Shown: positions 54,516 to 54,925, counted from the first letter of the stretch. The stretch is DNA of 64,000 bases from an uncultured archaeon (GCA_964608675.1 CAZSOZ010000002.1:64001-128000); one strand, 5' to 3'. Made by a program: numbers and translations. Notes: generated by a model from the sequence alone, not told the origin.

Positions 54516-54712
54516 TGGGGCCGTTGGGATTTGAACCCAAGCCGCAGCGTTGTCCGAAATCTTGCAGTGCAGGCTTGCCTGCACTTTTTGGCAATACTAA
54601 AATCTTTGATTTTAGTGTGCATTTAATTCTTTCTGAGAATTAAATTGCAACCTGCCTTTTGGAAAAGGCAGTTTCCCGAACGCTGAATCCTACCAAACTA
54701 GACTACGGCCCC
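54516..54712 (-). tRNA. tRNA-Pro(CGG) with a 124-nt intron at canonical position 37/38 (intron 54551-54674); CCA not encoded
   Basis: Acceptor GGGGCCG/CGGCCCC-A, D arm GTCT/GGAT, anticodon stem CAGCG/CGCTG with TT-CGG-G, T arm TTGGG-TTCAAAT-CCCAA. BHB: TTCG pairs with intron CGGA, bulges GG|A and CA|A. Confidence 0.93.
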
Positions 54713-54719
54713 CAAACTG

Positions 54720-54739
54720 CTGATGTAAGTTTACATCAG
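54720..54739. repeat. Perfect 20-bp palindrome in the tRNA leader
   Basis: CTGATGTAA-gt-TTACATCAG, 7 nt upstream of tRNA G1. Confidence 0.8.
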
Positions 54740-54925
54740 AGAATTATCTTGGATTTGCTTGATAAATTACCTTTAAACTTCATTAATGCTATAATAAATT
54801 TGAACAACAAAAAATAAAAATCAGTTGAATTTTTTTGAGTGAAGAGTTTTATTAAAATCTATTGCAGGCAGTCATGTTTAAATATTTTAGTTTAGTTAAT
54901 ATTTAGGTTTAATTTGGTGGGAAAA

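Follow-up and report, generated by a model that had tools for sequence, protein, structure and literature searches.

A dispersed palindromic repeat makes up the body of a tRNA-Pro(CGG) intron in an uncultured archaeon

How introns arrive in archaeal tRNA genes is an open question, and in a 2014 review (PMC4090602) the mechanism of their transposition is called unknown. The question is raised here by a tRNA-Pro(CGG) gene on the minus strand, at 54516-54712, of a 64,000-nucleotide stretch of DNA from an uncultured archaeon (GCA_964608675.1 CAZSOZ010000002.1:64001-128000; the whole stretch is referred to as the window, and positions are counted from its first letter). The genome to which the window belongs, G000, is a metagenome bin of 1.207 Mb in 53 contigs. 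The gene is 197 nt long, or 73 nt when spliced, and carries a 124-nt intron (54551-54674) with the bulge-helix-bulge (BHB) type of splice site. The body of this intron can be traced to a dispersed repeat: it is a member of a multicopy family of palindromic sequences that recurs in related genomes, for the most part outside tRNA genes. The reading that we favour, and think fairly probable, is that the family is a mosaic palindromic DNA repeat of the Iainarchaeum/Diapherotrites lineage, similar to miniature inverted-repeat transposable elements (MITEs) or repetitive extragenic palindromes (REPs), and that the copy in tRNA-Pro rides in a spliceable BHB intron.

The tRNA-Pro(CGG) gene and its intron

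The Rfam tRNA model, searched against a small region, scored 42.3 bits at 54516-54712 (gathering score 29) and aligned its positions 1-71 across the intron, so that the exons join into a normal cloverleaf. ARAGORN run with introns allowed returned the same span and a 124-nt intron, with the anticodon miscalled as Val-cac; the anticodon loop as read from the sequence is UUCGGGA, and the tRNA is therefore assigned as Pro(CGG) with its intron at 37/38. Neither default ARAGORN nor a search of the whole window with Rfam at gathering thresholds found the gene, which is a warning for annotation, as default tools miss it and the intron-aware one gives it the wrong anticodon. The 5′ exon (tRNA positions 1-37; 54675-54712) shares 94-95% identity with the corresponding halves of the G001 and G002 orthologues, and the 3′ exon (positions 38-73; 54516-54550) was placed by reading the sequence and by comparison with the orthologues. 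In G002 the orthologue consists of the exons joined directly.

A canonical hBHBh′ motif can be drawn at the exon-intron borders, in which U32-U33-C34-G35 are paired to a CGGA close to the intron's 3′ end and helix h′ is formed by two A-U pairs. Its 5′ side (54672-54680, minus strand; drawn by hand and in a constrained fold) comprises UUCG of tRNA positions 32-35 as one strand of the central 4-bp helix, then the G36-G37-A bulge and two A residues belonging to helix h′; its 3′ side (54550-54558, minus strand; constrained fold) comprises UU of helix h′, CGGA of the central helix and the bulge C-A-A38. When the fold was forced into hBHBh′ its energy was -70.5 kcal/mol, compared to -77.8 unconstrained, a cost of 7.3, and all four of the hairpins described below were kept. 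G000 has one EndA gene (PF01974, 93.4 bits at G000:C2:254890-255150, in a 172-aa open reading frame (ORF)). With a BHB and an EndA both present the intron should be spliceable, and we infer that it is spliced. A single EndA ORF of this length, together with 37/38-type positions, points to the use of canonical intron sites only, unlike the situation in Thermoproteales.

The intron is laid out as 3 nt, an element of about 110 nt and then 11 nt, and the 14 bases that lie outside the element are those that build the BHB. A target-site duplication was considered at this locus and dropped: the 3′ end of the intron merely resembles the anticodon loop, as it also does in the G001 intron, because of the BHB pairing (UUCG with CGRR, and AA with UU). 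The original prediction, in which the intron was described as almost wholly four inverted repeats lacking a C box, a D box or an ORF, agrees with what we found by reading, palindrome scan, Rfam and folding. No UGAUGA (RUGAUGA) or CUGA could be read on the sense strand of the intron, Rfam gave no match besides tRNA, and the ORFs that overlap the intron are mechanical only (38-62 aa). Contigs of three DNA runs were compared with the locus, and those of two runs from a single study carry an identical intron. The same samples (runs X1 and X2, contigs at 54675-54712) contain a second organism with a Pro-like 5′ exon that has five differences; its intron is different, starting with a hairpin TGACCTTTT-agg-AAAAGGTCA plus ATCAAAAAG.

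From the 5′ splice site inward the hairpins are here named A to D, which reverses the numbering of the original prediction. Hairpin A (its fourth unit; 54652-54671) is CTGCCTTTT-nn-AAAAGGCAG, a stem of 9 bp with a 2-nt centre, and is the outer hairpin of what we call the shell, of subfamily 1. Hairpin B (third unit, U3; 54618-54649) has 13 bp with one bulged T, and includes a perfect 10-bp stem at 54621-54645. Hairpin C (second unit, U2; 54596-54616) has 9 bp and a 3-nt centre. Hairpin D (first unit; 54562-54594) consists of the inner repeat AGTGCAGGC-tt-GCCTGCACT (54566-54585; 9 bp, 2-nt centre) within a TTGC/GCAA outer stem (54562-54565 and 54591-54594). An independent palindrome scan recovered all four. 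The intron folds at -42.8 kcal/mol, compared to -22.9 ± 3.4 for 200 dinucleotide shuffles (z = -5.9), none of which folded as well, so its hairpin content is beyond chance. Perfect palindromes (stem of at least 9, loop of at most 6) are in excess in the genome as a whole, with 281 in 1.207 Mb compared to 157-192 in three Markov-1 simulations; 101 of them are in the roughly 152 kb of non-coding DNA (0.66 per kb), and four fall within the 124-nt intron.

A dispersed repeat with a two-hairpin core

A BLAST search of the pre-tRNA against 40 relatives gave, for the intron part (query 43-133), more than 30 places among the matches listed, at 76-90% identity, in G001-G004 (same genus), G006 (same family) and G018. 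Among the matches are extragenic loci in other genomes with 85-90% identity over about 85 nt, and of 17 places fetched with their flanks most lay outside tRNA genes. They have a common order: a shell hairpin, GGTTGCAA, hairpin B, TGCACA, hairpin C, TAGTGCC(C)AAAA, and then a tail or a further hairpin. In the window the conserved part, a two-hairpin core of 73 nt (54585-54657, minus strand), reads linker GGTTGCAA, hairpin B, TGCACA, hairpin C and TAttGCC-AAAA, and a covariance model of it, R1, scores 88.4 bits (E = 1.9e-17).

Model R1 matches 14 of 61 relatives. With both strands listed it has two matches in G000, 9, 8, 8 and 7 in G001, G002, G003 and G004, none in G005, and 14, 14 and 17 in G011, G042 and G058. 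In a phylum-wide sample the core was present in 12 of 151 genomes, all of them within the order. EndA searches led to relatives named Candidatus Iainarchaeum, Diapherotrites and archaeon AR10, and the lineage is therefore placed in DPANN, as had been guessed from the sequence. In all, 84 distinct core copies, 83 besides that of the window, were collected from the genomes with R1 matches, using a model that requires both hairpins B and C.

These results bear on another account, in which the intron is structured in an ordinary way and its hairpins formed where they now stand, either by chance or because compact folding was selected locally. In favour of it, long introns must avoid disturbing the folding of the tRNA, and each of the hairpin 20-mers occurs once in G000, with none repeated alone; the original prediction had taken uniqueness of this kind as a mark of an ordinary intron. 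The 20-mer search is too narrow, because the family shows only with a structure-aware model and in relatives. The 83 further core copies, the identity of 85-90% over about 85 nt to extragenic loci and the z score of -5.9 refute this account, to which we give next to no credence. Two shorter sequences were also followed as possible repeats or signals and rejected. The 13-mer arm of hairpin B has six occurrences in the genome, of which the other five are in unrelated and apparently coding contexts, and the idea that hairpin B or the TTTTTGAT motif is a promoter, weighed by position relative to tRNA starts alone, was set aside.

The copies lie mainly between genes. Among 30 loci examined with 1.5-kb flanks, 26 have no ORF of at least 70 aa spanning the element, the exceptions being L064 (633 aa, a weak match) and three ORFs of 71-76 aa. 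At these loci the copies are usually within 100 nt of a gene end, and some are between convergent genes. By hand count, 10 have the same orientation as their flanking co-directional genes and 7 the opposite one. Five of the 84 copies are inside tRNA introns: three are sense (Pro in G000, Cys in G001 and Lys in G011) and two antisense (Ser in G006 and Asn in G011). Twelve further core matches are within 150 nt of a tRNA. A repeat that stands both between genes and in introns, in either orientation, provides a concrete way in which introns of archaeal tRNA genes could be acquired or reshaped.

Five extragenic copies (three in G003, one each in G002 and G018) have the hairpins in the order A-B-C-D, as in the intron, and in each of them hairpin A is GCCTTTT..AAAAGGCAGG, again as in the intron. 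Hairpin D can be read in four of the five; it has a different sequence and, where clear, is an inner hairpin inside a stem made with GTGCC, so that its architecture recurs in subfamily 1 with other sequences. From this order we conclude that the four hairpins most likely came as one composite. The original prediction had seen them as four unrelated units of about 20 bp that accreted one at a time in a landing pad. What stands of this is that the units are discrete modules that recur elsewhere, that gain and loss in the family does proceed by modules, and that in three copies a single extra small hairpin is nested in the loop of hairpin C. What fails is their independence: B and C, with their linkers, are one core and are found together in all 84 copies (as the model used to gather them requires), no 20-mer is repeated on its own in G000, and the A-B-C-D order recurs in the five extragenic copies. 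We therefore consider single accretion in a landing pad very unlikely.

The stems were examined in an independent MAFFT alignment of 60 copies. In this alignment 98.2% of the stem cells pair, and 16 of the 20 pairs have changes on both sides (11 of the 12 aligned pairs of hairpin B and 5 of the 8 of hairpin C are compensatory). The covariation score was 0.521, which none of 500 shuffles reached (0.157 ± 0.010), compared to at most 0.072 when the partners were slid. GTTGCAA, TGCACA and GTGCC, all single-stranded, vary little or not at all, and a three-way covariation links TTGCAA/TGCAC/GTGCC with TTACAA/TGTAC/GTATC. Such features could be expected of a functional structured RNA: the core, and possibly all four hairpins together, would serve as a small RNA or leave tRNA introns as a stable circle, and a protein or base pairing would recognise the linkers. 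It would also suit this explanation that the architecture of hairpin D is kept as its sequence changes, and that excised BHB introns circularise. Of the marks of a structured RNA family, compensatory change is present and a strand-specific signature is absent. G·U occupies 31 and A·C 32 of 1835 cells, so that neither strand is favoured; one-sided changes are rare, and those to G·U are almost absent, which is unusual for an RNA read from one strand. Moreover, the copies are in both orientations relative to their host tRNAs and to the flanking genes, and Rfam has no match besides tRNA. The stems thus point to palindromes kept as DNA rather than to RNA read from one strand, because both strands pair by Watson-Crick rules, both orientations are used and there is no wobble bias. 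An RNA function is accordingly improbable, and the earlier idea that the excised intron is a structured RNA decoy is weakened on the same grounds.

Modules in tRNA introns and at orthologous sites

The original prediction asked whether orthologous introns differ by gain or loss of whole units; orthologous or related sites do differ by whole modules. The clearest case lies upstream of the GAPDH gene, just after the sequence TTTTATGAA: this site is empty in G001, G002 and G004, holds the shell alone in G003 and G005, and holds shell and core in G000 (C1:266923-266995). In the outgroup genus (G007) just 64 nt separate the two matched gene segments. The core at this site is bounded by a 3-nt TGC repeat; no convincing BHB-like flanks could be drawn by hand around this extragenic copy. 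The tRNA-Cys intron is 254 nt with the core in G001 and 102 nt without it in G000. Over the family the core is gained or lost as one unit of 53-62 nt. The shell-only form fills the tRNA-Pro(CGG) intron of G001, the tRNA-Cys intron of G000 and the introns of three neighbouring tRNA genes of G006, and sits inverted in the tRNA-Asp intron of G000. At the G006 locus (L006; C1, ~393950-394660) the three introns are 108, 68 and 79 nt by ARAGORN, and each starts with a polypyrimidine shell hairpin.

The tRNA-Pro(CGG) gene itself is found in several states. It has no intron in G002 (exons 91-95% identical), G010, G031, G035 and G004. In G001 there is a 121-nt intron at the same position, which starts with the shell hairpin and lacks the core; in G030 there is an unrelated intron of 36 nt; and in G034 (L015, C3) there is one of 126 nt, which differs in content and has repeated hairpin arms of its own (AGAACC.../...GGTTCTTATGA). 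Because the G034 intron differs, long hairpin introns in this gene may have arisen more than once. The element may either have created the intron of G000 or have landed in an older, short one. Having empty, half-filled and filled orthologous sites within one genus makes the question of intron gain directly testable.

Other tRNA genes of G000 carry similar introns. ARAGORN with introns made 47 tRNA calls in this genome, 17 of them with introns and 14 with introns of 70-180 nt, one of which (Ser-tga at C1:118525) looks spurious; examples of the long-intron genes are at C1:22920-23093, C2:13940-14146, C4:81662-81846, C5:36730-36998 and C14:787-970. Most of the long introns are made of perfect or near-perfect hairpins and share modules. 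The tRNA-Gly(GCC) intron and that of a tRNA-Pro (ARAGORN anticodon ggg) are colinear. By reading, the tRNA-Cys intron begins with the reverse complement of the sequence that closes the tRNA-Asp intron, a match that runs right to the splice sites, and BLAST supports part of it (23 nt, 96%, opposite strand). From the tRNA-Pro intron, AAAAAGTGCAGG of hairpin D matches at 12 of 12 positions in the tRNA-Cys and tRNA-Asp introns, and CCTTTTGGAAAAGGC of hairpin A at 15 of 15 positions at the 3′ end of another long intron. ARAGORN anticodon labels are unreliable in G000: besides Pro(CGG) given as Val-cac, 'Pyl-cta' looks like Arg(TCT) by eye.

A further module of G000, which we call S, is a hairpin (A/T)AAC(C)TTTTTT-nnn-AAAAAAG(G)TTT followed by ATCAAAAA, with examples at C2:13976-14007, C5:49223-49250, C14:824-854, C2:36418-36447, C2:176396-176427 and C6:54650-54679. 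A regular expression for it gave 23 matches, and by eye roughly 15 of these seem to belong to the family. Four S modules are at the very start of tRNA introns, all in sense orientation. By coordinate reading at least three adjoin tRNA 3′ ends (Ala-tgc, Ile-tat and Phe-gaa; a script flagged Ala-tgc only), and two flagged by script adjoin tRNA 5′ ends in reverse orientation. One would expect the T6-T8 runs that directly follow the 5′ exon to terminate archaeal transcription within the gene.

The positions of the S modules, together with the presence of T5-T8 runs on both strands of S and of the shell hairpins, bring up another explanation, that the modules are mainly functional punctuation of DNA or RNA: bidirectional intrinsic terminators or insulators, palindromes of T runs and A runs, which would be under selection at gene ends and spread by recombination rather than transposition, the intron having inherited one. 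Archaeal RNA polymerase terminates at oligo-T, and the element copies are 1-100 nt from gene ends and often between convergent genes, as would suit such a role. The conserved core is not T-rich, yet is common to different shells, and a sense terminator within a tRNA intron would be harmful. The subfamily of G042 described next, with its bounded unit, its inverted ends and an empty site in a relative, also looks like insertion. Punctuation of this kind thus has little probability, in our view.

In G042 four near-identical copies (L105-L107 and L110, on C22, C1, C14 and C10) define a sharply bounded unit of 146 nt, with imperfect inverted ends of 13 bp, TATAGYAAARGAC, and TA at both ends; L225, L226 and L229 are related loci. 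An empty site for this unit is present in G058 (C51, ~6153), which reads TG where G042 has TA. Shell-only versions of the G042 type lack exactly the 53-nt core and have 93 nt between the outer inverted-repeat ends, with a TA ambiguity at the junction. Shell subfamily 2 has terminal inverted repeats, CCCTTTTTCTTTT and AAAAGAAAAAGGG. No target-site duplication was seen at the copies of the genus.

Mobility, enzymes and comparison with known elements

The repeat, then, has a conserved two-hairpin core (B and C with their TGCA-type linkers) inside a variable outer shell (A and D), and would behave as a DNA-level element that is inserted and deleted in either orientation, between genes and in tRNA introns. 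In tRNA-Pro the copy sits between the 3 nt and the 11 nt of intron that build the BHB with the anticodon loop. The whole insert would be transcribed, its four self-contained hairpins not competing with the body of the tRNA, and would then be removed by the single EndA of G000 and the exons ligated. We propose that the element is mobile as DNA and that the intron serves no purpose for the tRNA. It is possible, if rather doubtful, that tRNA introns in this DPANN lineage are made or rebuilt when nested, ultra-small palindromic mobile modules insert as DNA, for example the 53-62-nt core entering the centre of other palindromes with a 2-3-nt duplication, moved by an enzyme that reads DNA hairpins and lies outside the transposase families tested. 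If true, archaeal tRNA introns would be gained by a direct route open to observation, which the host would tolerate by means of EndA splicing.

A HUH/RAYT-like nuclease had been suggested as a partner of the units, and this suggestion was not borne out. The Y1/HUH TnpA family (PF01797) occurs in 4 of the 14 genomes that carry the element and in 14 of the 47 that do not, so that co-occurrence gives no support for a link to RAYT or IS200/IS605. One copy in G058 is about 480 nt downstream of a TnpB gene, not at the end of that gene. The TA ends of the G042 unit suggested an IS630 link, but a search for DDE_3 gave no match in any carrier of the element. DDE_Tnp_1 has 8, 2, 2 and 1 matches in G000-G003, and was discarded as the mover: homology between its copies ends at the ORF, and no ends common with the repeat were seen. 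Among the five genomes searched rve was found in G000 only and Transposase_mut in none. The DDE_Tnp_1 (IS4/IS5-like) matches of G000 are at C4:49210-49761, C1:337465-338013, C6:26980-27515 and on several short contigs, one with an in-frame TGA; its rve matches are on C20, C47 and C37, and no link between these and the repeat was found.

Several points weigh against a mobile DNA repeat riding in the intron. No transposase family tested (Y1_Tnp, TnpB, DDE_3, DDE_Tnp_1, rve and Transposase_mut) co-varies with the element: G000-G003, G011 and G042 lack Y1/HUH TnpA, the whole genus and G011 lack TnpB, all element-bearing genomes searched lack DDE_3, and G042 lacks DDE_Tnp_1. The copy in the window has no visible terminal inverted repeats or target duplication. 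The short direct repeats at the borders of the core (TGC in the genus, TA in G042) fit deletion by palindrome-stimulated slippage as well as they fit insertion, and the GAPDH gene tree, in which only the grouping of G000 with G001 is resolved (96/97 support), leaves the polarity of gain and loss open. There are only two core copies in G000, so recent activity in this genome is not shown. The conserved unpaired linkers and the structure-keeping change in hairpin D would fit a selected function too, and all of the genomes were binned from metagenomes, where the assembly of repeats is often poor.

Among known systems, the REPs of bacteria and the bacterial interspersed mosaic elements (BIMEs) are extragenic palindrome mosaics mobilised by RAYT/Y1 transposases. 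The family resembles them in being made of short, multicopy extragenic palindromes, in mosaics of variable unit number, at gene ends and in either orientation, with the pairing of the stems kept. Unlike REP/BIME, it has an archaeal host, does not co-occur with Y1, has a two-hairpin core with TGCA-type linkers and has copies in tRNA introns. The G042 unit, non-coding and 146 nt long with imperfect inverted ends, TA at its ends and an empty site, is like the TA-duplicating MITEs (of the Stowaway/IS630-Tc1 type) and the MITEs of archaea; it departs from them in that no carrier has an IS630-type transposase, the interior and not the ends is conserved across subfamilies, and the window's copy lacks inverted ends. 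With respect to the enzyme, therefore, the family is separated from both REP/BIME and MITE, as the transposase that goes with each is not found to accompany it. A third likeness is to the palindrome-associated transposable elements (PATEs) derived from IS200/IS605 and to omega-RNA regions, hairpin-rich non-autonomous elements that keep DNA hairpins rather than sequence; unlike in those, TnpA and TnpB do not track the element, and neither is present in G000-G003 or G011.

The nearest precedent is the transposition of tRNA introns in Thermoproteales (Fujishima et al. 2010, as described in the review PMC4090602). There, as here, introns at the BHB sites of several tRNA genes in a genome are related to one another, and gain is described as probably occurring at the DNA level. 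The present case differs in that the repeat is abundant away from tRNA genes too and lies in both orientations, in its modular build (shell, core and nested hairpin) and its empty and filled orthologous sites, and in the DPANN lineage. As an analogy only, the SOS splicing of DNA transposons from animal mRNAs (PMC12779559) likewise neutralises at the RNA level an inverted-repeat element lying within a gene; it differs in domain of life, in class of gene and in machinery, which here is BHB and EndA. The literature searched, which included one bioRxiv preprint without its supplements, yielded no description of hairpin repeats in the tRNA introns of DPANN, Diapherotrites or Iainarchaeum.

A fifth perfect palindrome (9 bp, 2-nt centre) is present outside the gene at 54720-54739, 8-27 nt upstream of the 5′ end of the tRNA, and is unique in the genome at up to three mismatches. 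It stands between a TATA-like motif (GATAATT, ~54742-54750, minus strand) and the tRNA 5′ end. Several other tRNAs of G000 have a perfect hairpin that ends 1-10 nt before position +1.

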